Shown here: positions 3,684 to 41,641 of the stretch, in pieces
Position numbering within the stretch: position 1 is the first letter of the stretch
Layout of the letters: each line of letters opens with the position of its first letter
NCBI GenBank assembly: GCA_016218625.1
Contig: JACRDL010000065.1
Span: 1,521-65,520 of the forward strand
Length of the DNA stretch: 64,000 nucleotides
Source of the DNA: Elusimicrobiota bacterium
GTDB lineage: Bacteria; Elusimicrobiota; UBA8919
Direction of reading: 5' to 3'
Notes under the pieces: model-generated
The model's database searches: none
Seen by the model: only the letters and a program-made list of their open reading frames with translations
What the model was told of the DNA's origin: nothing
Position numbers and translations under genes: made by a program

Positions 3684-3856
3684 AACCACAGATAAACCCC
3701 CGATGGAATCATTCGGGGGCAGGCTCCGATTTATGCAGAAATGTCATTGCGAAGCCCCGATACAACATCGGGGCTGTGGCAATCTCAAAAACCGAGATTA
3801 CTTCGGGCTTTGCCCTCGTAATGACAGCATTGCTGTCATCTGTGCCCATCTGTGGT
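3684..3856. repeat. Diverged family A-like element that also contains a family-F-type GC hairpin (cccccgatggaatcattcggggg)
   Basis: Shares gtcattgcga…gtggcaatc…accgagatt…cctcgtaatgac with family A. Lies between recA and the hydrolase gene. Confidence 0.7.
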
Positions 3857-4927: not shown

Positions 4928-4948
4928 AAGACCCCCTTATTTATTTTA

Positions 4949-5093
4949 ACCACAGATTACACAGATTGACACAGATGACAACAAAGTTGTCATTGCGAGG
5001 GCGAAGCCCGTGGCAATCCCATCATTAAAACCGAGATTGCTTCGTTTCACTCGCAATGACGTTTCTTGTGAAAATCTCGTGAAATCTTGTGGT
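4949..5093. repeat. Repeat family A copy. A palindromic core (gtcattgcgagggcgaagcccgtggcaatc…gattgc…ctcgcaatgac) is flanked by [cacagat]n and [atcttgtg]n heptamer arrays.
   Basis: Near-identical copies at 24493-24627 and 30862-30995, and a diverged copy at 3684-3856. All are intergenic. Confidence 0.85.
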
Positions 5094-5150: not shown

Positions 5151-6062
5151 TTAGTTTCCAATCTGGATTTTGTATAGACCTAAAAGATTTTTCAGAAGCA
5201 TTACTGTTGTAACCGCTCCGACTCCGCCTGGAACGGGGGTGATATATCCGGCAATATTTACCGCTTCCTCATATACAACATCGCCAACCGTCTTCATTTT
5301 CGGTTTGCCGGTTTTTTCGTCAATCACCGGTTCGCCTTTTTCATCTTTCATCTGTATTCTGTTTATTCCGACATCTATCACAATCGCACCTTCTTTTATC
5401 ATGTTACCCTTTATTAAGCCTGCTTTTCCGACGGCTACAATCAGTATCTCTGCCCGTTTCGTGTGACTTGCCAAATTTTTCGTCGCTATGTGACAGACGG
5501 TAGGCGTTGCCGATTCCAAAAGCGACGATAAAAGCATGAGCGTTACAGGTTTTCCCACTATCTCGCTATGTCCGACTATTACGGCTTCTTTACCTCTGAT
5601 GTTTTCTCCCGTTGATTTTATGCACTCCATAACAGAAAGTGCGGTGCAGGGAGCAACGGGCGGTTTTACATCAGAATATAAAAGTTTGCCGAGGTTTGCA
5701 GGTGAAACGCCTTCTACATCTTTTTGAGATGAGATCGCCATTTGAACTTTTCTTGAATTGATATGGGCTGGTAATGGCATCTGTAAAATCAGCCCTGTTA
5801 CTTTTTCATCTCGGTTTATTTTTTGTATTTCAGCAATCAACGCATCTTCCGTTATACTATTGTCCAATTGGACTAAATTGTATTCAATACCAATATCTTC
5901 GCAAGATGATTTTTGATTTTTTATATAAACTTTACTTGCGGGATTTTCACCGACCTGAACCGCCACAAGCACGGGCTTCTCTTTTATTTTTTCAAGTTCT
6001 GATTTTATCTCTTGTTTTATCGCATCCGCAATTTTGTTTCCGTCAATAACTTTCGCGTTCAC
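5151..6062 (-). CDS. folD: Bifunctional methylene-THF dehydrogenase / methenyl-THF cyclohydrolase
   Basis: Typical FolD N-terminus and length (303 aa), with the GRSxxVG-like NAD(P) motif region (VIVGHSEIVGKPV). Confidence 0.9.
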   Translation of the reverse strand: MNAKVIDGNKIADAIKQEIKSELEKIKEKPVLVAVQVGENPASKVYIKNQKSSCEDIGIEYNLVQLDNSITEDALIAEIQKINRDEKVTGLILQMPLPAHINSRKVQMAISSQKDVEGVSPANLGKLLYSDVKPPVAPCTALSVMECIKSTGENIRGKEAVIVGHSEIVGKPVTLMLLSSLLESATPTVCHIATKNLASHTKRAEILIVAVGKAGLIKGNMIKEGAIVIDVGINRIQMKDEKGEPVIDEKTGKPKMKTVGDVVYEEAVNIAGYITPVPGGVGAVTTVMLLKNLLGLYKIQIGN

Positions 6063-12977: not shown

Positions 12978-14171
12978 TCACCATAACAAAAGTTTTACTA
13001 TGCTATTTTTTTTTAAGAAAGATTTATTTTCATTAACTATCATAAAAGCATTTGCTTTTGAAAGCGAACCTATATCGGCAGAACCGCGATAATCGCTAAT
13101 CGGCAATACACTGATTTGATTTTTATTATCAATAACAAATGCCGGTACAAAATGTTTTCTGCCGGGGTGCTGCCTAAAATCAATCTTCAATATCCCGGAT
13201 TTTATATTCAATCCCGGGGTCATTCCCATCATTTTCTCGATTGCCGGTTTAATCATAACTAAAAATATCAGATATGCTGAAACAGGATTGCCCGGAATAC
13301 CGAAAATTATTTTTCTTCCCTTAATTCCAAAGAATACGGGTTTGCCGGGTTTAATTTTAACTGTATGAAATATTTTTTTAACACCGCATAAGTTCAATAT
13401 AGACGGTACTAAATCATAATCGCCTACGGAAACCCCGCCTGAAACAAGTAAAATATCATTTTTCATCTCTTCCACTATCGCTTTTTTTAGTTTTTTTTCT
13501 TCATCCCCGACAATACCTCTATATGCAACTTGCACATTCATCTTTTTAAGTAAGGATGACAGCATCGGACCATTACTATTATAAATCTTTCCCTTAATCA
13601 AATCATTCCCGGGCTCGATTATTTCATTGCCTGTATTAATTATCGCTGCGGTAGGTTTCCTATAAACCTTTACTTTTATTGCCCCAAGAGCGGAAATTAC
13701 AGAAACTTCAGGGGCTCTTATAGGTGTACCTTTTTTAAGAACAATTTTGCCTTTTCTTACATTTTCCCCTCTCAAAGATATGTTTTCACCTTGTTTTATA
13801 TTTTTCAGTATCTCAACACGCCCGTTCTTATTTTTCTTGGTATGCTCAACCATTACAACGGAATCGGTGCCTTTCGGCAGCGGTGAGCCCGTCATTATTC
13901 TGACGCATTCGCCTTTTCCGACAGTTTTCTTACAAATCTGACCCGCCGATATTATATCAATACATTTTAATCTCACCGGTATATGAACCAGATCCCGACA
14001 ACGGACAGCATACCCGTCCATAGAAGATTTGTTAAAAGGCGGTATGTTGCATTTTGCTTTAATATCTTCGGCAAGAATATACCCGAGCGCTTCATCTGTC
14101 GGTAATTTTTCGGTATCTAATATTTTCGCCCGAGCAAGTACCTTCTTAAATGCTTCATTAAAACTAATCAT
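12978..14171 (-). CDS. moeA: Molybdopterin molybdenum/tungsten transferase
   Basis: MoeA domain order and length (397 aa), including the GGVSVGDYD motif. Confidence 0.85.
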   Translation of the reverse strand: MISFNEAFKKVLARAKILDTEKLPTDEALGYILAEDIKAKCNIPPFNKSSMDGYAVRCRDLVHIPVRLKCIDIISAGQICKKTVGKGECVRIMTGSPLPKGTDSVVMVEHTKKNKNGRVEILKNIKQGENISLRGENVRKGKIVLKKGTPIRAPEVSVISALGAIKVKVYRKPTAAIINTGNEIIEPGNDLIKGKIYNSNGPMLSSLLKKMNVQVAYRGIVGDEEKKLKKAIVEEMKNDILLVSGGVSVGDYDLVPSILNLCGVKKIFHTVKIKPGKPVFFGIKGRKIIFGIPGNPVSAYLIFLVMIKPAIEKMMGMTPGLNIKSGILKIDFRQHPGRKHFVPAFVIDNKNQISVLPISDYRGSADIGSLSKANAFMIVNENKSFLKKNSIVKLLLW

Positions 14172-24492: not shown

Positions 24493-24627
24493 TAACACAG
24501 ATGACAACAAAGTTGTCATTGCGAGGGCGAAGCCCGTGGCAATCCCATCATTAAAACCGAGATTGCTTCACGGAGCAAGGTCCCGTTTTGACGGGATTCG
24601 CAATGACATTTCGGCGGCAATCCGTGG
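24493..24627. repeat. Repeat family A copy (with an internal extra hairpin insert)
   Basis: Matches 4971-5060 over most of its length. Lies between acsD and ackA. Confidence 0.85.
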
Positions 24628-24713: not shown

Positions 24714-25679
24714 TTATTTTATCAATTTCTGAATATAATTTTTTACTTCTTTAACGACAGCGGGATGATTCATAACAATCACATCCGCGCCGGCTTGAAT
24801 ATACCCCGCCGCAGTGGTCAACTCCCACAAGATACCCCTCTGTTTCAAAGGGCCCCATTCCGGTTTTTCCGACTCATCTGCCCTACACTCTTTGGTCTTC
24901 CATGTTTCCTGTCCGACAAATGTTATAATCGGTTGCGACATCATTTTGTCGCCTGATAGTGCGGCAAGACGCGTTCTTTCAATTATCGTATAACAGTACT
25001 CAAACCCATACCCTAACCCGCCCGTCGACGGATGAATTACAAGTCGGTCGGAACCAAATCCCATATCGGTTATAAGAATGTTTAACTGCTTTTCAAGATT
25101 GATATCAAGTGGCGTCTCGGCAATAAGTGAATGTCCGCCCGACTGGGCCGCGGCTGTAAATGTTTTATAATTTTCTTTTGTTGCCATCCCGAGCAAACAA
25201 TTCTCGCCTTTTGCCGCTTGACTTACATCCATTATAATTGACGAATCCTTTTCATTGTTTCCGCAGCCGATAATCAGCATCGGCAGCGAAGTTGCAGACA
25301 AAACATCTTTTACCGTTTTTGCCACTTCGGTTGAAGAAGCATTTTTACCGTCGGGCTCTGCACTTTTCAAACGAAAGCATATTAAGTCAGCGCCCAATGT
25401 CTCGCATTTTTTCGCCCACTGGGTAGGGTCATTTAATACGCTGCCATATTCATTTTTAAGGACATCGGGCCAATCGGTAGGTTCTATATCCCAAACCTCC
25501 ATCGCAATAGCCGGAGGATTCGGATTCTCACCCTCAAAAAAAAGAAAAGGAAGCGTATTACTTCCCCCTATTTTAACCACCTTTGAACGCGTGCCGCCTG
25601 TTTCTTTGGTTGCGCCTATTATCAATTCATAAATCTTTCCGGGCCATTTTTCAATTGCTTGTTCCATAAATAACTCCAA
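24714..25679 (-). CDS. acsD: Corrinoid iron-sulfur protein small subunit
   Basis: 321 aa TIM-barrel-like CFeSP delta subunit. Sits adjacent to RACo and acsC. Confidence 0.8.
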   Translation of the reverse strand: MELFMEQAIEKWPGKIYELIIGATKETGGTRSKVVKIGGSNTLPFLFFEGENPNPPAIAMEVWDIEPTDWPDVLKNEYGSVLNDPTQWAKKCETLGADLICFRLKSAEPDGKNASSTEVAKTVKDVLSATSLPMLIIGCGNNEKDSSIIMDVSQAAKGENCLLGMATKENYKTFTAAAQSGGHSLIAETPLDINLEKQLNILITDMGFGSDRLVIHPSTGGLGYGFEYCYTIIERTRLAALSGDKMMSQPIITFVGQETWKTKECRADESEKPEWGPLKQRGILWELTTAAGYIQAGADVIVMNHPAVVKEVKNYIQKLIK

Positions 25680-25711: not shown

Positions 25712-27637
25712 TTAAGAATAATAATCTACATTTTTCATTTTTAATTGTTTTTTCACTGATGGAAACAGTTCCAAATTCGTATGCGGTAAAAACAAAGACG
25801 CCGTATAATTATTCATAAATTCCGGATCGGCGCTTAAATCTATATATGTCATTTTTTGCGCAATCTCATTGGCACGCCGCATGGCGCTCTGCGACAAAAG
25901 ACACATTTTACAACCTGTTATCGAGCCGTTGCCGATAAACGAAAACTTTTCTGTAGGTATTTCGGGGAACAGACCAATCACTATGGATTTTTCTATGTCA
26001 AGAGCATTTCCGAGCCCACCCGCTATAATCACCTTGGAAAGTTGATGAATATCAATGCCGATTTTTTTAGTCAAAACCTCTATGCCGGAAAATATGGCGC
26101 CTTTTGAATGTATGAGATTTTTGATGTCCGCCTGAGTAACGGAGATGTTGTCGGTAATGAAAAACTCATAGCCCTCTTCCGTTTTTTTGAGATGTTTTGA
26201 CGAACCTTTTATGAAATCTCCTGATTTATCAATAATTCCGTTTGTAAAAAGTTCGGCAACTATAGAAATTATACCCGCACCGCAGATACCTATTGGTTTT
26301 TCATTGCCAATCGTTTCAATTCTTAATTCTGATCCTGAATCAAGTTCAGGATTAATTCTGAATTTTTCAATCGCACCTGCTTGCGCCCGTATGCCGTGCT
26401 TTATCCCGCCGCCCTCGAAACAGGGACCAGCAGAAGTTGAGCAACAAGCCAAAAAATCTTTATTACCGAGAACAACTTCGCCATTTGTTCCCAAATCAAT
26501 AAAAAGTGCAAGGTGCGAAAAATTACTCATTCCGCTTGCTAAAACACCCGCCGTTATATCACCTCCGACATAACATGCAACATTAGGTATGGTCGCCAAA
26601 AGTCCTCGCGGATTTATTTTTATTCCCGCCTCCGCTGCACGAATTACCGGAAAAGCATTCGCGGCGGGCACATATGGCGAACGTCTTATGTGCGTGGGAT
26701 CAACCTTAAGCAGAAGGTGTATCATCGTTGTGTTTCCCGCAGCGGTAACGCAGTTTATATCGTTGAGCGAAATTTTGTCGGAAATTACATGAGAAACTAT
26801 CAAATCGTTAACCGCGTCAACTATAACATGGTGAATACGGTCAAGACCAGATGAATCGCCGGCATAGATTATCCTCGTAATGACGTCTTCGCCGAAAGAA
26901 ACCTGCGGGTTATACATCGCCTTTGCGGAGACAACCTTTTGTGCTTTTAAATCAACGAGATAAGAAACGACAGTCGTGGTTCCTATATCTACGGCAACCC
27001 CGAAATTTTTATCAGCCGTATTGCCCGGCTCAACAAGAACGACCTCCGTGGTTTCGTTTCTGTTGCCGAGCGTAACGGTTATTTTAAAATCTGATGTCCT
27101 CAAAAGTGAAGGAAGTTTTTTTATGTTCGCAAGCCCCATCTGCATAACGGGACTTGCCGTTTTTGACTTTCTTATTTCTCTGAATATCCTTTCAAGATCG
27201 GCAACGGCGTTCTCTATTGACGGACGCGGAACTTCCAGATACAATTTTGCCGAAAGCGGGCTGTACTCAAAAATCTTTTCCTCAAAAACTTCAACGGGGG
27301 GGGCGGCGCGCTCGGCCGGAGTATAAATCTCGCCCATGGTTAATATCTGGGCTTTTTCCACGCGGGATTCTTCGGGTACAAAAACATCTATATCAACTTT
27401 GCAAATAGTTCTGCAGGCAAGAACAAAACCGTCCTTTTTTTCTTTTTCGGAAAGAATCGCAGAATCGGTCGTAACCTCGCCCTTTAAAATTTTCACCTTA
27501 CATCTTCCGCAAATACCGTCGCCGCCGCAGGAATTGTAAATTTGGACGCCGGCCATAGTTGACGCTGAAAGCAGATCCGTCCCGGGCGAAACAGAAACCT
27601 CTTTATTATGCGGTAAAAATTTTATTTTGCAGGACAT
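25712..27637 (-). CDS. Reductive activator of corrinoid Fe-S protein (RACo-like), with an N-terminal [2Fe-2S] ferredoxin domain and an ASKHA ATPase domain
   Basis: The N-terminus CGGDGICGRCKV is a plant-type ferredoxin motif. The 641-aa length and ASKHA-like core match RACo/DUF4445. Sits in an acs cluster. Confidence 0.75.
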   Translation of the reverse strand: MSCKIKFLPHNKEVSVSPGTDLLSASTMAGVQIYNSCGGDGICGRCKVKILKGEVTTDSAILSEKEKKDGFVLACRTICKVDIDVFVPEESRVEKAQILTMGEIYTPAERAAPPVEVFEEKIFEYSPLSAKLYLEVPRPSIENAVADLERIFREIRKSKTASPVMQMGLANIKKLPSLLRTSDFKITVTLGNRNETTEVVLVEPGNTADKNFGVAVDIGTTTVVSYLVDLKAQKVVSAKAMYNPQVSFGEDVITRIIYAGDSSGLDRIHHVIVDAVNDLIVSHVISDKISLNDINCVTAAGNTTMIHLLLKVDPTHIRRSPYVPAANAFPVIRAAEAGIKINPRGLLATIPNVACYVGGDITAGVLASGMSNFSHLALFIDLGTNGEVVLGNKDFLACCSTSAGPCFEGGGIKHGIRAQAGAIEKFRINPELDSGSELRIETIGNEKPIGICGAGIISIVAELFTNGIIDKSGDFIKGSSKHLKKTEEGYEFFITDNISVTQADIKNLIHSKGAIFSGIEVLTKKIGIDIHQLSKVIIAGGLGNALDIEKSIVIGLFPEIPTEKFSFIGNGSITGCKMCLLSQSAMRRANEIAQKMTYIDLSADPEFMNNYTASLFLPHTNLELFPSVKKQLKMKNVDYYS

Positions 27638-27646
27638 ACCCCCCCT

Positions 27647-30600
27647 TTATTCTCCGAATAGTTGCTTAAATATGTTTTTTTTCTCGCTTCCTTTTGGTTT
27701 ATCAGTCTCTGCTTTTTTCTGCTGTTCTTTTAATTGCCATTCTATCCGTTTCTTTAACATCTCGTTTTCTTTAATTACTGCTTGATACTTAATCTGCCAA
27801 TGTGATTCACCTAATAGTAACTGTTTTTTAAATGATGTTATTTCTTTTTCTAAATCGTCGGTTTTTTTAACCAAGCGTTTTTTTTGTTCTTCTATCTCGT
27901 GCTGGACAACTTTTTCTACTTCTTTGTCTTTGTATTGTAATTTCTGGTTAAATTCTTTTCTTTCATCTTCAATTCTCTTTTTCCATGTTTCAATTTCCTG
28001 CTCCAGCGTAGATTCTACTGATTTTTTTTCTTGCTGAATATTATATATCTTTTCGTTCAGGACTATTCGCTCTTCATTCATTTTTTTGTGCGTCATTTCC
28101 AGTTCGGTTCCAAGTTGCTGGAGCCGGCTTACAAGTTGCTGTTCTCTCTGTTCCATTTTTTCGATATATTTGTCTTTCTCTTCTTGCTGATTTTTAAGCA
28201 TTTGCTGAAATTTCTGTTTCTCAGCACCGACTTCTTCTTTCAACTTTACTGCTTGTAATTGCTCTGTCTGCAATTGTTCCTTAACCGCTTTGAGCATCTG
28301 CTCGCGTTTTTCTATTCCAATCTGTAAATTAGAATCTTTCTGTACTATTTCTGTTCCTAATTCGCCCTGCCGTTTTATGCCTTCTTCTATAATACACTTT
28401 AATCTGTTTATCTCAGACCTTAACTCATCTATTGTCCGCTTCTTCTCTTCAAACCCTTTTTGCCACCGCTCGTCGTTTTGCTTAAATTCCTGTACGAGTG
28501 ATGCTTTATCTCTTTCAATATCATCTATTTTGTTTTTCAAACTATTCATCTTTCGTTCATTCTCTTCTTTCTCTATTTGATATTGTGCTGCCTTTTCACG
28601 TTCAGCCAAAATTATGCCGCCTAACTTGTTTAATCCTTCTCCTGCTCTACTTATCTCATCTTGTAATTGCTTTATCTTCTGTTCAAAACCCTGAACGATA
28701 GAACCCTTTTCTCTTTCAAAGTTATCTTGTTCCTCTGATAACTCTTTTTTTAACTGCGAACTCTCTAACTCAACTGATTGTAATTTCTCGCCCAGCAGTT
28801 TTATTGCTTGCTCTTTTTTTTGCATCTCGGTTTGAAGTTGGAAATTCTGCTGTAACATCTCTGTTTCTAATAATTTTTTTTCTTCTATCTTGCTCTCTAA
28901 ATTTTTCTCTAATTCCGCCGTTTTATTTTTTAATATATTTATCTCTTCCTGTTTTTTTTGTAAATTGGTTTGCAGTTCTTTTTCATTAGTAATTCTACTC
29001 GCTTCCCATTTAATTTGTTTTTCTTCTAATTGTTTATTTAATTTTCTTATTTCGTCTTCCTTAAAATTAAACTTTGTAATCCACTGATTATTATTTTCAA
29101 GAACTTGTTTTTTTAGAATATTGATTTCCACATCTTTGTTTTCTATCGTTGTTTTAAATTCCTTTATATTTATCTCTTTTTCATCAATGATATGTTGTTC
29201 AGTGTTTATTTTTTGCTGAAACACTGCGATTTCATTTTGTAATTGATGTATTTGTGTTAATAGTTTCTCTTTTTCACCCTTGAATTCAGTTTTTAATTCG
29301 GTTGCGTTTAACTGTTCCGTTTGTAATTGGTCGCCTAATGCTTTGATTATCTGGTCTCGCTTCTGAATTTCAATCTTTATCTGTGCATCCTTCTGTAACA
29401 TCTGTGACCCTAACTCGCCTTTTTGTTTGATATTTTCCTCTATCGTTTTCTTCAATTTATTTATTTCATTCCGTAATTCCTCTATTGTTTGCTTCTTCTC
29501 TTCAAACCCTTTTCGCCACCGCTCATCGTTCTGCTTAATCTCTTGTAAAAGTGTCTCTTTTTCCTGCCCCATCTTCACTATCTGTCCAGTCAAACGGCTT
29601 ATTTCTTTCTCTTTTGTTTCATGCTCTACACACCATTGCGAGACCTTCTGCACTAACTCCAAATCTAATTCTGCCCGTTGTTCGTCCAGTTTTTTTATCT
29701 TTACTTGCCAATCTCTGTTATGTTCTTCTAATGTTTTATTAAAGGTCTCACCCGCTTCTTTTATCTGTTTTTTTAATGTTTCTATCTCCAGTTCCTTTTG
29801 TTGAATCGTCGCCTGAAATTGAACCGTAAACTCGGCCTTCTCCTTTGTAGATTTCTCTCGCTCTTTAAAAATTAGTGCGTCTAACTTGTTTATGTCCGCT
29901 TTCTCACGCTCTAACTTTTCTTGTAATTGTTTCTCTCGCTCTTCAAAACTTTGTATAAGTGAACTTTTTTCTTTCTCAAATGAAGCCCGTAATTGTTTCT
30001 CTTTTTCATCGAATTTCTGGATCTTTTCGTTGAACTCTTTTTTTAACTGCGGACTCTCTAACTCAACTAATTGTAGTTTCTCGCCCAGCAATTTTATCGC
30101 TTGCTCTTTTTTCTGCAACTCGGTTTGAAGTTGGAATTTCTGCTGCAACATTTCCGTCTCTAACACGCTTTTTTCTTTTATTATAGCACCGAGATTTTTA
30201 TGTGTTTCGTTTAATTCTTTCCGCAGTTCATCAATTTCTTGCTGTCTGTTTTGTAGACCTTCCTGCCAGCGGGTTTCTTTTTGAACAAATTTTTCAATAA
30301 GTGAGTCCTTCTCTTTTTCAAAATTATCCTGCAACTCTGTTTCACGAATTCTGAGTTTTCCTAATGATTCAACCCGTATTTCTTCCCGCTGTCTATCCAG
30401 TTTTCTAATTTCGCCTTCTTTTAATTGAAATACATCCTGCCAGTTTTTGTTGTTCTCTAAAATCTGATTTTTCAGATTCTGGATTTCATTATTTTTATGT
30501 TTTATATTCTCCTCTAATTCTTCTATCTGTTGTCTGAATGGTATCTGTATGTTTTTAATTTCTGTTTCCGACTCCGCCAGTTTTTGGTTTATTTGAATCT

Positions 30601-30826
30601 GTTGCTCTTTAATTTTTTGAATCTCATCTGCCCAATGTGTTAGTTTTTCTTCTAATTCTTTAACTATATCTGACAGTATCCTTTTAATATTGGTGGCAAC
30701 TGCAAAGGCACGAATATCAGAATCTGTTTTCCCGATTATTCTTTCTTCAGTGTAACCAAAACCAGTTTTCATTTTGGTTTTTATTTCTGATAATAAAGCG
30801 TCTATTTCGTCCTTATATTTTTCCAT
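27647..30826 (-). CDS. Giant coiled-coil protein (1059 aa), rich in E/K/Q and internally duplicated, function unknown
   Basis: Heptad-rich sequence throughout, with no TM segments or recognisable enzymatic motifs. Two long modules are duplicated (IKQNDERWRKGFEEKKQTIEELRNEINKLK… versus FKQNDERWQKGFEEKKRTIDELRSEINRLK…; LETEMLQQKFQLQTELQKKEQAIKLLGEKLQLVELESPQLKKEF versus LETEMLQQNFQLQTEMQKKEQAIKLLGEKLQSVELESSQLKKEL). A GGGGGA SD-like motif lies upstream of the ATG. Confidence 0.8.
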   Translation of the reverse strand: MEKYKDEIDALLSEIKTKMKTGFGYTEERIIGKTDSDIRAFAVATNIKRILSDIVKELEEKLTHWADEIQKIKEQQIQINQKLAESETEIKNIQIPFRQQIEELEENIKHKNNEIQNLKNQILENNKNWQDVFQLKEGEIRKLDRQREEIRVESLGKLRIRETELQDNFEKEKDSLIEKFVQKETRWQEGLQNRQQEIDELRKELNETHKNLGAIIKEKSVLETEMLQQKFQLQTELQKKEQAIKLLGEKLQLVELESPQLKKEFNEKIQKFDEKEKQLRASFEKEKSSLIQSFEEREKQLQEKLEREKADINKLDALIFKEREKSTKEKAEFTVQFQATIQQKELEIETLKKQIKEAGETFNKTLEEHNRDWQVKIKKLDEQRAELDLELVQKVSQWCVEHETKEKEISRLTGQIVKMGQEKETLLQEIKQNDERWRKGFEEKKQTIEELRNEINKLKKTIEENIKQKGELGSQMLQKDAQIKIEIQKRDQIIKALGDQLQTEQLNATELKTEFKGEKEKLLTQIHQLQNEIAVFQQKINTEQHIIDEKEINIKEFKTTIENKDVEINILKKQVLENNNQWITKFNFKEDEIRKLNKQLEEKQIKWEASRITNEKELQTNLQKKQEEINILKNKTAELEKNLESKIEEKKLLETEMLQQNFQLQTEMQKKEQAIKLLGEKLQSVELESSQLKKELSEEQDNFEREKGSIVQGFEQKIKQLQDEISRAGEGLNKLGGIILAEREKAAQYQIEKEENERKMNSLKNKIDDIERDKASLVQEFKQNDERWQKGFEEKKRTIDELRSEINRLKCIIEEGIKRQGELGTEIVQKDSNLQIGIEKREQMLKAVKEQLQTEQLQAVKLKEEVGAEKQKFQQMLKNQQEEKDKYIEKMEQREQQLVSRLQQLGTELEMTHKKMNEERIVLNEKIYNIQQEKKSVESTLEQEIETWKKRIEDERKEFNQKLQYKDKEVEKVVQHEIEEQKKRLVKKTDDLEKEITSFKKQLLLGESHWQIKYQAVIKENEMLKKRIEWQLKEQQKKAETDKPKGSEKKNIFKQLFGE

Positions 30827-30861
30827 ATCCTACATCCCCCAACACCCCTCTTGTTCTGTAA

Positions 30862-30995
30862 CCACAGATTTCACGGATTTTCACAGATGACAACAAAGTT
30901 GTCATTGCGAGGGCAAAAGCCCGTGGCAATCCCATCATTAAAACCAAGATTGCTTCACTTCGTTCGCAATGACATTTCTTGTGTAATCTTGTGGT
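30862..30995. repeat. Repeat family A copy
   Basis: Matches 4951-5093, including the flanking cacagat arrays. Lies between the response regulator and the coiled-coil gene. Confidence 0.85.
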
Positions 30996-31026
30996 TGCCA
31001 TTTTTTGCATTACAAAACTATCCCTT

Positions 31027-31404
31027 TTATTCGCCCAAGACCTGTTTTACTTTTGACCATAACTGTTCAATACTATATGGTTTTTCAAGAAAAGTATCTC
31101 CTTCTGTTTTCAGTGGGGGGAAAGCAAATACTTTGGACATAAATCCTTTAATCGTAGATATAATAACCGGTATATTTTTTGTTTTTTCATTTTCTTTCAG
31201 TTTTGTGTAGACAGTAAATCCATCCATCTTAGGCATCATAATATCTAAAATTATCAAATCCGGTAGATGTTCCTGGGCTTGTTTCAATCCTTCCTCGCCA
31301 TTTCTTGCAATAAGTATTTCATAGCCAGCAATCTCTAAACTGGTCTTCAGAAGTTCTACAGTTTCTTCAGTATCGTCACAAAGTAATACAAGTTTTTTAG
31401 CCAT
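31027..31404 (-). CDS. Single-domain response regulator (CheY-like receiver)
   Basis: 125 aa with D-D…D(54-like) in LIILDIMMPKMDGF, plus T and K. Overlaps the acsC stop by 8 nt, so it is co-transcribed with acsC. Confidence 0.8.
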   Translation of the reverse strand: MAKKLVLLCDDTEETVELLKTSLEIAGYEILIARNGEEGLKQAQEHLPDLIILDIMMPKMDGFTVYTKLKENEKTKNIPVIISTIKGFMSKVFAFPPLKTEGDTFLEKPYSIEQLWSKVKQVLGE

Positions 31405-32719
31405 TTTGCTTCCAAACCGTTTTCAGATATTTTGGAATGCCTGATGCCTCTTTCGGACCGACGAGCACCTGCCAGCCGGTAGTATCTTCAAGTTTCCCGC
31501 TCATAACCGAAACATAACCGGGAATGATTATTTTTTTATGGCTGACTTTATTTGCAACTTCTGTTTTTTTCATCCAGGTATCAACGATTTCAGCATTGAA
31601 CTTGTCTGCAGCCCATGCGGTTAAAACCGACATACCCTCAGCATCGCAAACCAAAAGCCACGCCGGAATTTTTGAGTTCTCTATTTCAGGTGAGACGGTA
31701 AAAAATGTTAAAGAAAAATTTGTAGTAACCAAAAGCGGCGATTTATCGTCGGGTGTACCGATAGAATAAAGTTTGGGCTCCATCATTATTGGTTTTTGTG
31801 GGTCGGTGTAAATATTCAGACGAAGCGTAACCAGAGGCAGAATTTCTTCGACTTTGTCCATCTCAACGACGAGCACACCTGCGTATTTTACGATGTAGGT
31901 AGATGCTTCAAAGGCATCGTTTGCAAATGCGATTAAAGGATAACCGAGCGGCCTAAAATTTTTTTTCAATGCAAAACGCCTGGCTTGAGTAAAATCCTGA
32001 ACGCATTTTGAAACATCGCGGCAGCTCAAGTCAAGCACAATGTCCTTAACTCCCGCCGATGAAACCTTCTGCGAAAGAGCAGCTGTTTCTTCAATATTTT
32101 TTCCGCAAACACACAGAGGAATATTATATTTTTTTGCGAGCGCGGTCATCTGCTCGGAATTTTTTTCGTTTGCGCAATAGATAAGCGGCCTTTTTTGCGA
32201 AAGATTTTTTAGTGCTTCATCAATTGCCACCGGGTTTTCGCTGATTAAAACAAGAGGCAGTCCGGTTTTTTCGGATAACTCTTTTGAGACCGAAGCGAAT
32301 TTTTCGGCATTATTTGTTTCATTTTTTACGGCAATCATATCAACGCCAACCATCATTCCCACCCGTTCAAAATTCAATTTTTTTATTCTTTCAATTTTTG
32401 CTGAAAGATTTTGTTCATTGTCTGAAATTGAAACAGCAATCGCCGTTGGATGAAAGAAAGTTTTTTCGTGCCTGAACAGAACCGTTTCGCCGCCGACTTC
32501 AACTTTTCTATCACCCTCTCCGATAGTAATCGTTGCCATTGGCGGAAGTGAAGCGGACTCCAATAGTTGTTTTGCTTGTTCGCTTACATCCGGGCATTTT
32601 GACAGTTCTGTTTTTTTTCCGGCGAGCGCCATCGCAAACGCAAGACAGGTCGGAAACCCGCATTTTTTACAATTTGTTTTAGGTAAATTTTTGTAAATAT
32701 CAAGCCCCGACAGTGCCAT
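31397..32719 (-). CDS. acsC: Corrinoid iron-sulfur protein large subunit
   Basis: N-terminal 4Fe-4S motif CKKCGFPTCLAFAMAL, followed by TIM-barrel and B12-binding regions. 440 aa. Confidence 0.85.
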   Translation of the reverse strand: MALSGLDIYKNLPKTNCKKCGFPTCLAFAMALAGKKTELSKCPDVSEQAKQLLESASLPPMATITIGEGDRKVEVGGETVLFRHEKTFFHPTAIAVSISDNEQNLSAKIERIKKLNFERVGMMVGVDMIAVKNETNNAEKFASVSKELSEKTGLPLVLISENPVAIDEALKNLSQKRPLIYCANEKNSEQMTALAKKYNIPLCVCGKNIEETAALSQKVSSAGVKDIVLDLSCRDVSKCVQDFTQARRFALKKNFRPLGYPLIAFANDAFEASTYIVKYAGVLVVEMDKVEEILPLVTLRLNIYTDPQKPIMMEPKLYSIGTPDDKSPLLVTTNFSLTFFTVSPEIENSKIPAWLLVCDAEGMSVLTAWAADKFNAEIVDTWMKKTEVANKVSHKKIIIPGYVSVMSGKLEDTTGWQVLVGPKEASGIPKYLKTVWKQNG

Positions 32720-32748: not shown

Positions 32749-33618
32749 TTATTCTGAAAAATACTTTGATAACTTTTCCTTTAGTAAGTCATATAATCTT
32801 TTATATGGAGTTGTATTTTGAGAATTGAAAAACTCTAATAATAATTTTAGAGTTTTACCTTCTCTGAAAATCACTTTAATAATACCCTCTTCCCACAATT
32901 TTTCATTTTCCAAAATTTTACGCCAATATCTCAATTCTAATTCTTTTAATTCTTCAAAACTTTTAAGGGGTTCTTTGTCGCAATTAACTTCTGGAATTTC
33001 TGGCAAATCTTTTTTCCATTGTTTCAACCATAAAAGCATGTCGTCCCACATTTTTGGATTTTTTAGGTATTCAAAAAATTCTTCTCCATAAAATAATTTA
33101 ACTTCAATATCATAAAAGGAACTTAATCTTGTTATCTCTTGTTCATAAAAATTTTTATTTTTTGAAAGATCTGGGTCAATAAAATACATAATTCCTGTCA
33201 ATTGTTTTCCATGTTTTTTATAAAGAATTTCTAATTTTGTTTCAAAATTTGAAATTTGACCCCGTTTTTTAGTTGAGTCGTGGTCATCTCTTACTTTCTG
33301 TTCAACAAAATAAATTTTATTTAACTTGCTAAAATATTGGTCTATTGATAAATTTTCGCCTTTTTCATTAGTAATATTCTTATCAAGTATTGTATAATCC
33401 CAATCTCTTAAAATTTTTTTAATTAATTCTTCAAGTGCATCGCCAAATCTAATTTCGTGTGACTGTAACAAATTCTGAAGAACTTTTGTTCCCGGTTTTG
33501 TAGGTCTGAATAAACCAATAAATCGTTCTGGCCAATCTGCAATCTTTTTTAACAACTCATTCTTTTCTTTACTAAACAAATGCTCATTCAAAATTTTAGC
33601 AAAATTTTCATAATTCAT
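32749..33618 (-). CDS. Hypothetical protein, candidate restriction endonuclease partnering the adjacent methyltransferase
   Basis: 289 aa with no recognisable family. A possible PD-(D/E)xK-like D…(E/V)EQK arrangement is present (SIDQYF…YFVEQKVRDD). It lies on the same strand 18 bp downstream of a Type II-like MTase, forming a two-gene islet between acsB and acsC. Confidence 0.35.
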   Translation of the reverse strand: MNYENFAKILNEHLFSKEKNELLKKIADWPERFIGLFRPTKPGTKVLQNLLQSHEIRFGDALEELIKKILRDWDYTILDKNITNEKGENLSIDQYFSKLNKIYFVEQKVRDDHDSTKKRGQISNFETKLEILYKKHGKQLTGIMYFIDPDLSKNKNFYEQEITRLSSFYDIEVKLFYGEEFFEYLKNPKMWDDMLLWLKQWKKDLPEIPEVNCDKEPLKSFEELKELELRYWRKILENEKLWEEGIIKVIFREGKTLKLLLEFFNSQNTTPYKRLYDLLKEKLSKYFSE

Positions 33619-33635
33619 AATAAATCACCCCTCAA

Positions 33636-34535
33636 CTATGTTTTTACTAATATTTTATTTTCACTCTTTCTACTAACAAACAAGTCATCATCTAATTCTT
33701 TTAATCGTTTATTTATAACTTCAATATATTTATGTTCTTTTTCAATCATTATGTAATTTCTTCCAAATTTTTTGGCTATATATCCTGTCGTGCCTGTACC
33801 CGCAAATGGGTCTAACACAATATCGCCTTCTTTACTCGTTGCTAAAATAATTCTGGTAAGTAACTTTTCTGGCTTTTGCGTGGAATGAACTTTTTGACCG
33901 TTTTCATCTTTTATTCTTTCATCACCGGTACAAAGTGAAAAATACCAATCACTTCTCATCTGTTTCCCGTTATTCATTTCTTTCATCAATTTATAATTAA
34001 ACGTATATTTTTTGGAATATTTGTCCTTTGTCGCCCAAATAAGTGTTTCATGTGCATTAGTAAAACGAACCCCACGAAAATTTGGCATCGGATTTGTTTT
34101 TATCCATACAACATCATTTAATATCCAAAATCCTAAATCTTGCATCACTTTTCCAACTCTAAAAATATTATGATATGCACCAATAACCCAGATTGTACCT
34201 GTTTTTTTGAGAATCCGTTGACATTCATATAACCAATTTTTGATAAATTCATCATATTCCTCAAAACTGCCAAATTTATCCCAATTATCATTAACTCCAT
34301 TAACAATTGAATTATTTGGTCTTATTAGAATATTTTGTAACTGTAAATTGTACGGTGGGTCGGCAAAAATCAAATCAATAGAATTATCAGGAATTGCTTT
34401 CATTACTTCAGTACAATTACCTTCAATAATTTTATTTGTGAAATCACTAACATTCTTTGTAAATGTTTTTGCATCGTAAATCACAATATTACTTTTCATT
34501 AACAACGGCTTTTTTCCTTTTTTCTTTTTATACAT
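33636..34535 (-). CDS. DNA methyltransferase, beta-class (N6-adenine or N4-cytosine)
   Basis: The DPPYN motif IV precedes the FAGTGTTG motif I, which is the circularly permuted beta-class order. 299 aa. Confidence 0.85.
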
Positions 34536-38623: not shown

Positions 38624-40531
38624 TTATTCTCCGTACATCATTGGTTTGAGTTTAAGTGCTTCTCTTTTTTTATCTAAATGCTTAACAATCAAGTCCGCTG
38701 CTTTGAGCGGGTCGGACTCAAATGCAAATTTTCCGCCGACGGTATTTTCAATACTATTTATTAGATACTCTGTAAGATTTTTTCCGCCCATAACAGGAAG
38801 CGGTAATCCCAAGACAGTAAATATACCGGAAGCAACGGCATAAAATCCTATGGATACTGCTTTTTCAGACATCCATTCAGGAGCAGCAGCGGCAACGGGT
38901 AAATCAGAAATATCCTCGCCCAAGCCACCCTCTGTTAAAACATTGCAAAGAGTTGTGAGGATTCTTGAAATATCCACACACGCACCCATATGCAAAACAG
39001 GCGGGATGCCGACTGCTTCGCAGATTTCCTGCAGTCCCTTGCCCGCATATTTTTTTGCCGCTTCCGGAACCAACAGACCCGCCTTTGCGGACGCCAGAGC
39101 CGAACAACCGGTTGTAACGACCAGAACATCATTTTTTATCAGTTCCTTCGTAAGTTCAATGTGCGCCCAGTCGTGTTTGATTTTAGGATTATTACAACCG
39201 ACGATTCCAACCGCACCACGAAGTCGACCCGATATAACAGCATCGTTGAGTGGTCTGTAAGTCGCTCTATATTTTCCACCGAGCATCTTAAAAACATATT
39301 CAGAAGTAAAACCGGCAACTAATTCCATTTTTTCCTTCGGGATATTTAAAGATTCTTTTTTTCTGTTTTTATAATTTTCAACCGCCATTCTTACTATTTT
39401 TTTTGCAATCGGCAATGCTTCTTCTTCTGAAAACTCTATGTGTTCAACGCCGGGAAATTTTGCTTTAGGAGAAGTTGAGATAATCTTTGTATGGAAACAA
39501 GTTGCAAGTTTTCCAAGTGCCGGCATTATGCATTGAACATCAACTAACATTAAATCAACCGCACCGGTGATTACAGCGAGTTCCTGCTGTAAGAAATTTC
39601 CTGCAACTGATATGCCATGACGCATCAAAATCTCATTTGCTGTGCAGCAGATACCTGCAAGATTTATACCTTTTGCTCCGTACTTTTTTGCAAGTTCCAA
39701 AAGTTCTTTATCCTGTGATGCAGCGACAATTACATCTGAAAGTGTGGGCTCGTGACCGTGAACTATTATGTTCACCTCATCTTCCTTCAATACGCCGAGG
39801 TTTGAAACCGACCTGACCGGTTCGGGCTGACCGAATAAAACATCCTGCAGGTCGGTTGCTATCATGCTTCCGCCCCAACCGTCACCGAGAGATGTGCGAA
39901 TACCCTGCTGTAAAATATTTTGATAATCATTGTCGACGCCGATATTCGTCCTGTGCATGATTTCAACGACTTCCCTGTCAATTCCCCGCGGGGTGAACCT
40001 GTTTTTTCTCCATATCTCCTGTCTTTTTTTAGGGGCACGACGGGTGAACTGCAATTCGCCGTGCTGCTGGCCGAACTCAGCGAAACATTTTTCTGCTACA
40101 TCGTGCGCGACTTCTTCTATTTTTCTGTTTTCGATTTTCACTTTCAGCTCTTTTGCAAGATTTAAAAGTTTTTCCTTCCCCTTTATTCCGTAGCCCTTGG
40201 TTTTTCCTTCGGAAGTTGTAAGCAATGTATGGGCAACATCTCTGCCGTGGTCAGAATGAGCGGCAGCACCCGCAGCAATCATCCTGACAAGATTTCGCGC
40301 AGCGATAGTATCCGCTGTGGCGCCGCAGATTCCTTCCTGCGGACCTTCGCCGAACGGATCAATCCTACAAGGACCCATAACGCAATTTCTGCAACAAATA
40401 CCCAATTGACCAAAACCGCATTCCGGCTCCATAGTTTCGTGTCTATCAAAAGCAGTGCATATATTTTTATTACAGGCAAGTCCCAGCATTTCTTTCGTTG
40501 CCAAATCAATACTTTTTTCACTATCGCTCAT
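38624..40531 (-). CDS. cooS: Anaerobic carbon-monoxide dehydrogenase catalytic subunit
   Basis: 635 aa. N-terminal B-/D-cluster cysteines (CGFGQLGICCRNCVMGPCRI) and a C-cluster region. Context matches cooS/acsA. Confidence 0.9.
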   Translation of the reverse strand: MSDSEKSIDLATKEMLGLACNKNICTAFDRHETMEPECGFGQLGICCRNCVMGPCRIDPFGEGPQEGICGATADTIAARNLVRMIAAGAAAHSDHGRDVAHTLLTTSEGKTKGYGIKGKEKLLNLAKELKVKIENRKIEEVAHDVAEKCFAEFGQQHGELQFTRRAPKKRQEIWRKNRFTPRGIDREVVEIMHRTNIGVDNDYQNILQQGIRTSLGDGWGGSMIATDLQDVLFGQPEPVRSVSNLGVLKEDEVNIIVHGHEPTLSDVIVAASQDKELLELAKKYGAKGINLAGICCTANEILMRHGISVAGNFLQQELAVITGAVDLMLVDVQCIMPALGKLATCFHTKIISTSPKAKFPGVEHIEFSEEEALPIAKKIVRMAVENYKNRKKESLNIPKEKMELVAGFTSEYVFKMLGGKYRATYRPLNDAVISGRLRGAVGIVGCNNPKIKHDWAHIELTKELIKNDVLVVTTGCSALASAKAGLLVPEAAKKYAGKGLQEICEAVGIPPVLHMGACVDISRILTTLCNVLTEGGLGEDISDLPVAAAAPEWMSEKAVSIGFYAVASGIFTVLGLPLPVMGGKNLTEYLINSIENTVGGKFAFESDPLKAADLIVKHLDKKREALKLKPMMYGE

Positions 40532-41322
40532 TTTTCCGCCTCCAGAATGATTTTTATTTTTTCAATCTGACTTAAAATAGAACTATCACATAACAACACC
40601 CCGCGAGCATCTCGCAAATTTTTATTATAACCGATAAAACTTAAAATATCAACCCTGTTAGAGATGTCACACCGTGACACGGTATCTCTAACAGGGTCAA
40701 TCCCATCAACATTTTTTCCTATAAATTCCTCGTCAGTTTTATTCAAAACTTTATTCCCGACGATAAAAACTTTGTTTATTTTCAAATCATAGCAAAGTTT
40801 TTTTATTCTTTTCGCGGTTTCAATGGATTTTATATCGGGTTCTACAATAATTAAAACGGCATCAACTCCTGTTGCCGTTCCACGAGAAAGGTTTTCAATT
40901 CCCGCAGGCATATCCATTATAAGGACTTCGTCTCTTTGAAGAACGAGATGTCCCACGAGCGTTTTAATAAACGCGTTTTCTGGGCAGAAACATCCTGAGC
41001 CGCCTTTCTTAAGCGAACCCATATTTATAAGACGGATATTTTTATATTCGGGGCAGAATTTTTCGGGTATGTCGTCGACTTTCGGATTCATTTTGAAAAA
41101 ACCGTTTTTTGCTTCGGTTCGTTCGTTGATTATATTTTTCATTCCCGATATAGGCGTGATTTTTTCTGCATTGGGAAAATTAAGTGTCTGGGCAAGATTT
41201 GAGTCCGGGTCGCAGTCAGCGGCAATAACCTTTTTTTCTTTTGAAAAAGCAACCGCAATTGCAGCAGCAATTGTGGTTTTTCCGACACCGCCTTTGCCAG
41301 TTACAGCAATTTTTTTTATCAC
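40528..41322 (-). CDS. cooC: CODH nickel-insertion ATPase (CooC/AcsF)
   Basis: Walker A IAVTGKGGVGKTT. I place the start at the GTG (VIKKIAVTG…). The longer reading in the ORF track translates repeat family B. Carries an in-frame palindrome insertion (PVRDTVSRCDISNRV). Confidence 0.85.
   Translation of the reverse strand: MIKKIAVTGKGGVGKTTIAAAIAVAFSKEKKVIAADCDPDSNLAQTLNFPNAEKITPISGMKNIINERTEAKNGFFKMNPKVDDIPEKFCPEYKNIRLINMGSLKKGGSGCFCPENAFIKTLVGHLVLQRDEVLIMDMPAGIENLSRGTATGVDAVLIIVEPDIKSIETAKRIKKLCYDLKINKVFIVGNKVLNKTDEEFIGKNVDGIDPVRDTVSRCDISNRVDILSFIGYNKNLRDARGVLLCDSSILSQIEKIKIILEAEK
40663..40706. repeat. Family D-like palindrome inserted in-frame in cooC (encodes PVRDTVSRCDISNRV)
   Basis: ccctgttagagatgtcacaccgtgacacggtatctctaacaggg has the same arms as family D with a different loop. 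Confidence 0.8.
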
Positions 41323-41342
41323 GGTTTTAATTCTATCAAACT

Positions 41343-41641
41343 GACCGTTATTTGTCAAGATAAGCCACAGAATGTCACAGAATTTCACAGAATTTTTTTC
41401 TGTGTTCTTTTTCTGTGTGATTCTGTGGCGCTTTTGAAATTCCAATACTACAAGATAGCCACAGAATGTCACAGAATTTCACAGAAGTTTTTTCTGTGTT
41501 CTTTTTCTGTGTGGTTCTGTGGCGCCTTTCAAATTCCGATACTCCAAGATAGCCACAGAATGTCACAGAATTACACAGAATTTTTTTCTGTGTTCTTTTT
41601 CTGTGTGATTCTGTGGCGCTTTTGAAATTCCGATGCTGTAA
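41343..41641. repeat. Three directly abutting tandem copies of repeat family B (about 96-100 bp each)
   Basis: Unit starts lie near 41343, 41451 and 41546, with 90% or more identity between units. There are no unique spacers. Confidence 0.9.

Follow-up and report, generated by a model that had tools for sequence, protein, structure and literature searches.

In Myxococcus, the receiver of FrzS docks onto the tetratricopeptide repeats (TPRs) of SgmX, while the coiled coil of FrzS gives polar localisation (PMC9811614). Here we analysed a 1059-amino-acid (aa) coiled-coil protein encoded in a 64,000-nucleotide (nt) stretch of an Elusimicrobiota genome (contig JACRDL010000065.1, positions 1,521 to 65,520; hereafter the window), where its gene and that of a single-domain receiver stand in a Wood-Ljungdahl gene cluster, among the genes for the corrinoid iron-sulfur protein (CFeSP) and its reductive activator RACo. 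Like FrzS/AglZ and SgmX (PMC9811614, PMC7668184), the family and module to which we assign this protein combine a receiver of the CheY type with a very long coiled-coil rod and a partner made of helical repeats. In FrzS/AglZ, however, receiver and coiled coil are joined in one polypeptide, whereas they are separate open reading frames (ORFs) in the window and at all homologous loci; FrzS and AglZ have pseudo-receivers, whereas the window receiver keeps all catalytic residues; and SgmX is a soluble protein of 14 TPRs, whereas the repeat protein of the module is a predicted bitopic TPR/HEAT membrane protein. The likeness, which is drawn from the description in PMC9811614, is architectural, in the sense of "works like" and not of "is a member of".

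The coiled-coil-rich proteins (CCRPs), such as crescentin, FilP/Scy, Helicobacter Ccrp and those of cyanobacteria (PMC7002697, also 10.1101/674176; PMC4379086), are a second described group. The window protein shows their dominant heptad-based alpha-helical rod, long and stuttered and without enzymatic domains, and resembles them further in its lineage-specific sequence and variable length; both may be regarded as candidate filament or scaffold formers. It has, however, no sequence match to CCRPs in Pfam, NCBIfam or PDB, its family has its own head and tail, and the coupling to a receiver is a feature of this family and not of classical CCRPs. With the accessory genes known from acs operons (cooC, RACo/orf7, and those for ferredoxin and oxidoreductases), the coiled-coil gene shares a position inside the operon: it stands between acsC and acsD, beside RACo. 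The closest acs clusters lack it, which sets it apart from RACo and cooC; its family is found mostly outside acs loci, and its product carries no cofactor- or nucleotide-binding motif.

Judged from its sequence and gene neighbourhood, the window protein is a member of a small, unnamed and undescribed family of receiver-linked coiled-coil proteins, seen here in Elusimicrobiota-type genomes only. An orthologue of the window receiver (58-70% identity) was found upstream of the family gene, on the same strand, in seven of the seven other loci (L014, L017, L018, L019/L020, L022, L025 and L026) whose recovered contigs reach both the receiver and the coiled-coil genes. The first-pass annotation of this DNA, made without database searches, had paired the coiled-coil gene with the single-domain receiver, and this pairing is borne out; its remark that no precedent was known is not supported, since the family sits downstream of the same receiver orthologue at ilvBN, ilvD/leuA and two-component loci. 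Using BLASTP with composition-based statistics, the window protein matched the homologues of L018 (E 5e-91), L017 (E 2e-46), L022 (E 2e-29) and L019 (E 7e-13). Over the first 165 residues the L018 protein is 72% identical to it, with a ratio of nonsynonymous to synonymous substitution rates (dN/dS) of 0.21. The family genes downstream of the receiver orthologues encode 375 aa in L017, 558 aa in L018, 595 aa in L019/L020 and 464 aa in L022, while L025 holds the N-terminal part of such a gene, cut by the contig end, and L026 the C-terminal part. Lengths range from 375 to 1059 aa (375-595 aa for the clear homologues), the window protein being the longest member recovered; the head and tail are common to the family and the length of the rod varies.

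Two side observations concern the family members. A transmembrane (TM) helix, YIAIFLLIISLTAIIKIII, was predicted at the C-terminus of the L019 homologue (595 aa; positions 13560-13640), which is a predicted tail-anchored rod; no TM segment occurs in the window protein or in any other member. The window receiver is nearest to that of L014 (70%), whereas the window head is nearest to that of L018 (72%) and far from that of L014 (33-38%); recombination within the module or unequal rates could have caused this discordance.

The coiled-coil gene (Table 1) is uninterrupted over 1059 codons, starts with ATG, lies in DNA of 34-36% GC and is a real gene under protein-level constraint. Its product contains 17.5% E, 15.7% K, 11.1% Q (E+K+Q 44%), 9.9% L and 8.8% I, with only three Pro and two Cys residues. 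No TM segment was found (maximum Kyte-Doolittle mean over 19 residues, 0.71), nor a signal peptide or wall anchor of the kind that M proteins have, and sequence searches of Pfam, NCBIfam, PADLOC and PDB gave no match above threshold. The protein is non-enzymatic and without TM segment, and is predicted to be cytoplasmic and rod-shaped. The first-pass description of an E/K/Q-rich coiled-coil gene between acsC/receiver and RACo, with neither TM segment nor catalytic motif, agrees with the ORF, the Pfam-confirmed neighbours, the hydropathy and the domain searches. In 28-residue windows at the best register, hydrophobic residues occupied 50-88% of the a/d positions versus 0-30% of the other positions, and the heptad register of the rod changes every 30-60 residues. 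A single-sequence AlphaFold2 (AF2) model, of low confidence (mean predicted local distance difference test (pLDDT) score, 58), was more than 95% helical, with eight helices (residues 2-23, 35-254, 260-402, 406-506, 514-583, 591-733, 735-851 and 863-1038) and no globular region. The first-pass annotation, which had proposed coiled-coil and structure prediction as checks, described the protein as made entirely of heptad repeats; it is indeed mostly coiled coil, but a helix-loop head takes up residues 1-34, and the rod is broken in 5-6 places.

The N-terminal head carries the family signature M[EQ]KYKEEIxALLxEIKxKIxSGFGYT...RAFAVA..IK, which is present in the window, L018, L017 and L025 and in the proteins P0001, P0003 and P0002. 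It is diverged in L019 and was not seen in the ORF of L022 as called. With a four-sequence alignment, AF2 modelled the head at a pLDDT of 84.6 (helices 2-20, 27-30 and 35-144). Foldseek comparison of the head model with PDB gave a best E of 1.8, which is not meaningful, and a head-profile search of PDB returned nothing above threshold. The rod has the structure (AB)(A'B'), as detected by BLASTP of fragments against the rest of the protein: residues 101-355 align with 554-767 (41-57% identity) and 393-575 with 744-970 (51-61% identity, E down to 8e-36), and the sub-units A and B are 31-41% identical to each other. Between the copies the synonymous divergence is saturated (dS 1.4-2.4) and dN/dS is 0.15-0.25, which points to an old duplication maintained under protein-level constraint. 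The 558-aa homologue of L018 aligns solely to window residues 1-278 and 757-996, and because this alignment skips the intervening part, the extra length of the window protein is attributed to an internal tandem duplication of about 450 aa. In the tail, W(Q/K).KYQ......L(K/Q).R(L/I/M).WE is present in the window, L018, L017, L019 and L022; L014 departs from the motif in its first W, which is replaced by A, and keeps the remainder, with the C-terminal W. Recurrent Trp residues had hinted at spectrin-like 106-residue repeats, which were rejected because successive Trp residues lie at uneven distances (20-186 residues) and the repeat units measure about 200-450 aa.

A long protein of this composition could also be the product of a generic low-complexity gene of the SMC, M-protein or myosin type, or its gene could be a decaying pseudogene or an assembly artefact, in each case without a specific function. 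Weak matches to the SMC coiled-coil arm (TIGR02168) and to JetC were obtained, and related contigs are broken or collapsed inside the family gene (L013, L014, L016 and L026). The TIGR02168 match, however, reached 37.1 bits versus a cut-off of 567 bits and covered model positions 668-987, which belong to the arm only; the weak profile similarity to SMC/JetC/Rad50-type proteins extends over 300-360 residues of antiparallel coiled-coil arm and is compositional, and the ABC ATPase head, the hinge and the zinc hook are all absent from the window protein, with neither SMC_N nor SMC_hinge found in it by Pfam. The intact frame, a dN/dS of 0.15-0.3 among orthologues and internal repeats, the conservation of the head and tail motifs and of the receiver partner, and the lack of an M-protein signal peptide or wall anchor likewise speak against this explanation, which we hold to be hardly credible. 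The first-pass annotation had named a common SMC/M-protein-like gene as the outcome that would undo its proposal, and the searches did not give that outcome.

The coiled-coil gene has the appearance of an orphan in sequence searches because the products of its family are missing from the collections. A word-indexed search with the full protein gave no match at E<=1e-5, exact look-up of the protein and of a variant starting at M19 found neither on record, and a JGI metagenome scan with the head alignment returned none. A full HMMER scan of 1.84 billion representatives returned two short proteins alone, which match residues 1-140, the head end. One of them, P0002, is encoded directly downstream of a receiver 70% identical to the window receiver, and the end of the ORF that follows P0002 (in L014) matches the C-terminus of the window coiled-coil protein. 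A search with the window receiver, together with inspection of the loci of its closest relatives, led to the further family loci. The coiled-coil proteins of the window, L017, L018, L019 and L022 are absent from a 15-billion-protein collection, in which the adjacent receiver and HEAT proteins are present. Since the databases lack the coiled-coil proteins that were looked up, the near-absence of matches is not evidence of rarity. As a side observation, protein collections appear to omit long coiled-coil products of low complexity systematically, hence the orphan look of their genes. In GenBank, two accession numbers lie between MBI5573933.1 and MBI5573936.1, which are identical to the window RACo and receiver, against the single 1059-aa ORF in the window; the public annotation may split the coiled-coil gene or call an extra small ORF.

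The equivalents of CheY D12, D13, D57, T87 and K109 are all kept in the window receiver and its seven closest orthologues, and with this complete catalytic quintet the window receiver is predicted to be a canonical phospho-acceptor; the receiver of L021, a Firestonebacteria outlier, has E at the D12 position. The score of the window receiver against the DVU0259/DivK equivalog (70.8 bits) did not reach the cut-off of 160 bits. In L017, L018, L019, L022, L025 and L026, the gene that stands between those for the receiver and the rod encodes a TPR/HEAT membrane protein of about 460 aa. From N- to C-terminus, this protein comprises a signal or TM segment, a TPR-like region, a central TM helix and a HEAT-repeat domain, and it is predicted to be bitopic, with the TPR-like half in the periplasm and the HEAT half in the cytoplasm. 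The recovered HEAT-protein cluster includes PIU83824.1, a protein from an Elusimicrobia metagenome-assembled genome (MAG). Histidine kinase genes were found directly upstream in L019/L020, L022/L023 and L021. The loci point to a conserved module that comprises a phosphorylatable receiver, usually a TPR/HEAT membrane protein, and a coiled-coil rod, with kinase genes often adjacent. None of the module loci showed a link to genes for type IV pili or motility. Separately, the longest ORFs of the L025 HEAT gene (5911-5990) and of the window cooC gene (40528-41472, minus strand) open with near-identical peptides (..TEKNSVKFC(D/E)ILWLI..); the shared stretch is probably a translated dispersed repeat, with the true starts downstream.

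In the window, all genes from about 5151 to 41472 (about 36 kb) lie on the minus strand and form one co-directional Wood-Ljungdahl supercluster. The order is cooC, acsA, ferredoxin, FAD oxidoreductase, acsB, a type II restriction-modification (R-M) pair of a DNA methylase and an HpyAIV-family enzyme, acsC, the receiver, the coiled-coil gene, RACo, acsD, acetate kinase, acsE, NuoE/F-like genes, formate dehydrogenase, mobA, molybdate ABC transporter genes, moeA, formate-THF ligase, NiFe hydrogenase, MetV/MetF, FchA and FolD, several of these names being read from translations rather than from profile scans. The closest relatives of RACo come from Elusimicrobiota MAGs. The DNA of the R-M pair has a GC content of 28%. 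The stop of acsC overlaps the start of the receiver gene by 8 nt (31397-31404), and the C-terminus of AcsC has three extra residues (QNG) compared with that of L004 and L028, two acs loci considered below. The receiver and coiled-coil genes are separated by a 200-nt spacer (30827-31026), and 9 nt with a strong Shine-Dalgarno sequence, AGGGGGGG, lie between the stop of the coiled-coil gene and the ATG of RACo. The 8-nt overlap of the first-pass annotation therefore exists at the acsC/receiver junction, while the coiled-coil gene stands 200 nt away from the receiver. A scan of 24-35 kb detected no terminator-like site in these junctions and promoter-like sites at chance level, with one weak candidate at 30905-30877. 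Because of the 8-nt overlap, the 9-nt gap and the lack of a terminator-like site, co-transcription of the coiled-coil gene with the CFeSP genes, as supposed in the first-pass annotation, is the simplest reading of the junctions and is likely.

Most of the spacer between the receiver and coiled-coil genes consists of a structured repeat with inverted-repeat arms at 30885-30910 and 30964-30989 and an RNA fold z of -3.3. Copies (89-96% identity overall) were found at 4947-5070 (90%), 24496-24571 (96%) and 3809-3844; the repeat occurs in the receiver/coiled-coil, recA/folD and acsD/ack spacers. Since it recurs in intergenic regions, we regard it as similar to a miniature inverted-repeat transposable element (MITE). 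Rfam found nothing in the whole window, and comparison of spacers of different loci gave no informative homology. In related assemblies, similar repeat-rich spacers coincide with contig ends.

Table 1. Features of the coiled-coil gene and its neighbourhood (coordinates of the window)
Feature	Position	Strand	Description and basis
Coiled-coil protein gene	27647..30826	-	1059 aa; head, duplicated rod, conserved tail; ORF, homologues, AF2
N-terminal head, aa 1-62	30641..30826	-	Conserved; helix 2-20, GFGY-containing loop, start of long helix; alignments, AF2
Rod repeat block 1, aa 100-553	29168..30529	-	Sub-units A (~100-355) and B (~368-550); self-comparison
Rod repeat block 2, aa 554-970	27917..29167	-	A'B' copy of block 1, absent in shorter homologues; self-comparison
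C-terminal tail motif, aa ~1000-1040	27707..27829	-	Conserved; L..KE(S/T).WQ.KYQ..I.E...LK.RL.WE.KE..K; alignment of six members; BLASTP to L014 C-terminal ORF
Single-domain response-regulator receiver	31027..31404	-	125 aa; PF00072, 81.7 bits vs 30.2-bit cut-off
MITE-like structured repeat	30859..30983	-	~125 nt, most of receiver/coiled-coil spacer; inverted arms, RNA fold, copies
acsC	31397..32719	-	CFeSP large subunit; PF03599, 365 bits, and PF04060 (CdhD and FeS)
RACo	25712..27637	-	Reductive activator of CFeSP; RACo_C_ter, Raco_middle, RACo_linker and Fer2 domains
acsD	24714-25679	-	Pfam
DNA methylase (N6/N4)	33636-34535	-	Type II R-M pair between acsB and acsC
HpyAIV-family restriction enzyme	32749-33618	-	NF045832, E 1e-74; R-M pair spans 32749-34535

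The three closest complete acs clusters are those of L004 (acsB 91% and acsC 82% identical to the window), L007 (86% and 76%) and L008 (85% and 77%). All three run acsB-acsC-RACo-acsD with short non-coding spacers, and no receiver, coiled-coil gene or R-M pair was found in them. The other module loci adjoin ilvBN, ilvD/leuA, two-component or housekeeping genes, with no acs genes nearby. A further contig, L028 (1-2641), was reached through P0008, a receiver 65% identical to that of the window. It carries acsC (79% identical to the window and 82% to L004), a 195-nt repeat-bearing spacer, the receiver and a soluble 160-aa HEAT-only protein, which shares 46% identity with the cytoplasmic portion of the L018 TPR/HEAT protein (E 6e-44), and it ends in a repeat 97 nt past the HEAT gene, before any coiled-coil gene or RACo. 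The recurrence of the synteny, which the first-pass annotation had proposed to look for, is thus seen in part: acsC passes directly to RACo in the closest clusters, while L028 repeats acsC-receiver-HEAT and then the contig ends. Because of this contig the link with acsC is not a one-off. In a neighbour-joining (NJ) tree of receivers, of limited resolution, the window grouped with L014 (78% bootstrap) and L028 weakly with the ilv-linked set (55%), so that the two acs-linked receivers are not obviously sisters. L028 leaves room for an old acs linkage that was later lost or relocated in other lineages, for two recruitments, or for an insertion-prone spacer.

These loci bear on whether the module is a genuine accessory of the CFeSP system in a subset of Elusimicrobiota, that is, a phosphorylation-controlled scaffold or tether that would organise or gate carbon monoxide dehydrogenase/acetyl-CoA synthase (CODH/ACS), CFeSP and RACo. 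Such a role would suit the tight integration into the operon and the place of the coiled-coil gene in the middle of the supercluster; the divergent L028 adds a second occurrence of the receiver behind acsC, and the non-sister relation of the two acs-linked receivers allows two recruitments or an old linkage. On the other hand, the module is missing from all three of the closest complete acs clusters, it occurs at ilv, two-component or other non-acs loci in at least five other lineages, the junctions differ (an overlap in the window versus the repeat-bearing spacer in L028), L028 stops before a coiled-coil gene or RACo, and the same operon accepted the unrelated R-M pair. On balance we find an accessory role of this kind doubtful. 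In the more specific form that some Wood-Ljungdahl Elusimicrobiota recruited the receiver, with HEAT protein and/or rod, into the CFeSP operon, where it organises, tethers or phospho-regulates CODH/ACS-CFeSP-RACo, we consider it somewhat less probable still. If it were true, the receiver/HEAT/rod module would serve a central carbon-fixation complex as a structural scaffold under signalling control, a kind not described before, and would give a first hint that the acetyl-CoA synthase/corrinoid system is spatially organised in a regulated way.

The flanks of the module raise the further question of whether a mobile or defence island that enters variable regions carries the receiver/coiled-coil pair as cargo. 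The R-M pair lies one gene upstream in the window, and MITE-like repeats flank or interrupt the module. Upstream of the module, L017 has CRISPR-like repeats (1-110), L025 a PD-(D/E)XK nuclease and L014 the end of an IS200-like transposase gene, together with a 24-nt repeat on both sides (1-120 and 1410-1585), and in L016 a 501-aa ORF on the opposite strand (391-1896) interrupts the head-coding region and so cuts the gene. PADLOC, however, gave a best E of 0.034 for the coiled-coil protein, which is not significant, and receiver-domain matches alone for the receiver. The module of L019 sits among gcpE, radC, an aminoacyl-tRNA synthetase gene and nusA, next to its own kinase, and no integrase or transposase was found beside the module in the window. 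We therefore regard cargo of this type as very improbable.

The explanation that we favour, with modest confidence, is that the window protein is the family rod of a phosphorylation-controlled, membrane-associated scaffold, and that its placement in the acs operon is a lineage-restricted insertion or hitch-hiking. In the proposed mechanism, a histidine kinase would phosphorylate the receiver, the receiver would dock on the HEAT domain and/or on the coiled-coil head, and this docking would switch the assembly, membrane attachment or localisation of the long coiled-coil scaffold. Such a scheme would follow the logic known in Myxococcus from FrzS/AglZ and the TPR protein SgmX, except that the receiver, the repeat protein and the rod are each encoded by a gene of their own. 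The window would hold a HEAT-less copy of the module (receiver and rod) between acsC and RACo, probably transcribed with them, in an operon that also took up the R-M pair. Since the module is absent from the closest acs clusters and the family is found mostly at non-acs loci, a lineage-restricted insertion is more likely than a dedicated CODH/ACS scaffold. Of the two possibilities offered by the first-pass annotation, a scaffold for these complexes or an unrelated insertion, the insertion is favoured; the scaffold is less likely, although L028 keeps the idea alive as an improbable one.

Several points weigh against this favoured explanation. In the window and in L014, no HEAT gene separates the receiver gene from the rod gene, tblastn detected no TPR/HEAT homologue in the 64-kb window, and profile scans found no histidine kinase (HisKA/HATPase) protein in it. 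As the window is without the HEAT gene and the kinase, the module may here be incomplete or work differently. The proposed link between receiver, HEAT protein and rod consists in gene adjacency. The family members are absent from the collections, so the true distribution of the family is not captured by collection searches. L028 repeats the receiver after acsC in a second lineage, which pure chance insertion explains poorly.

If the favoured explanation is true, the finding would mean that the FrzS/SgmX polarity logic has a "split" counterpart in a poorly studied phylum, in the form of an unannotated three-gene module. It would also provide a concrete candidate target for single-domain receivers, whose outputs are mostly unknown.

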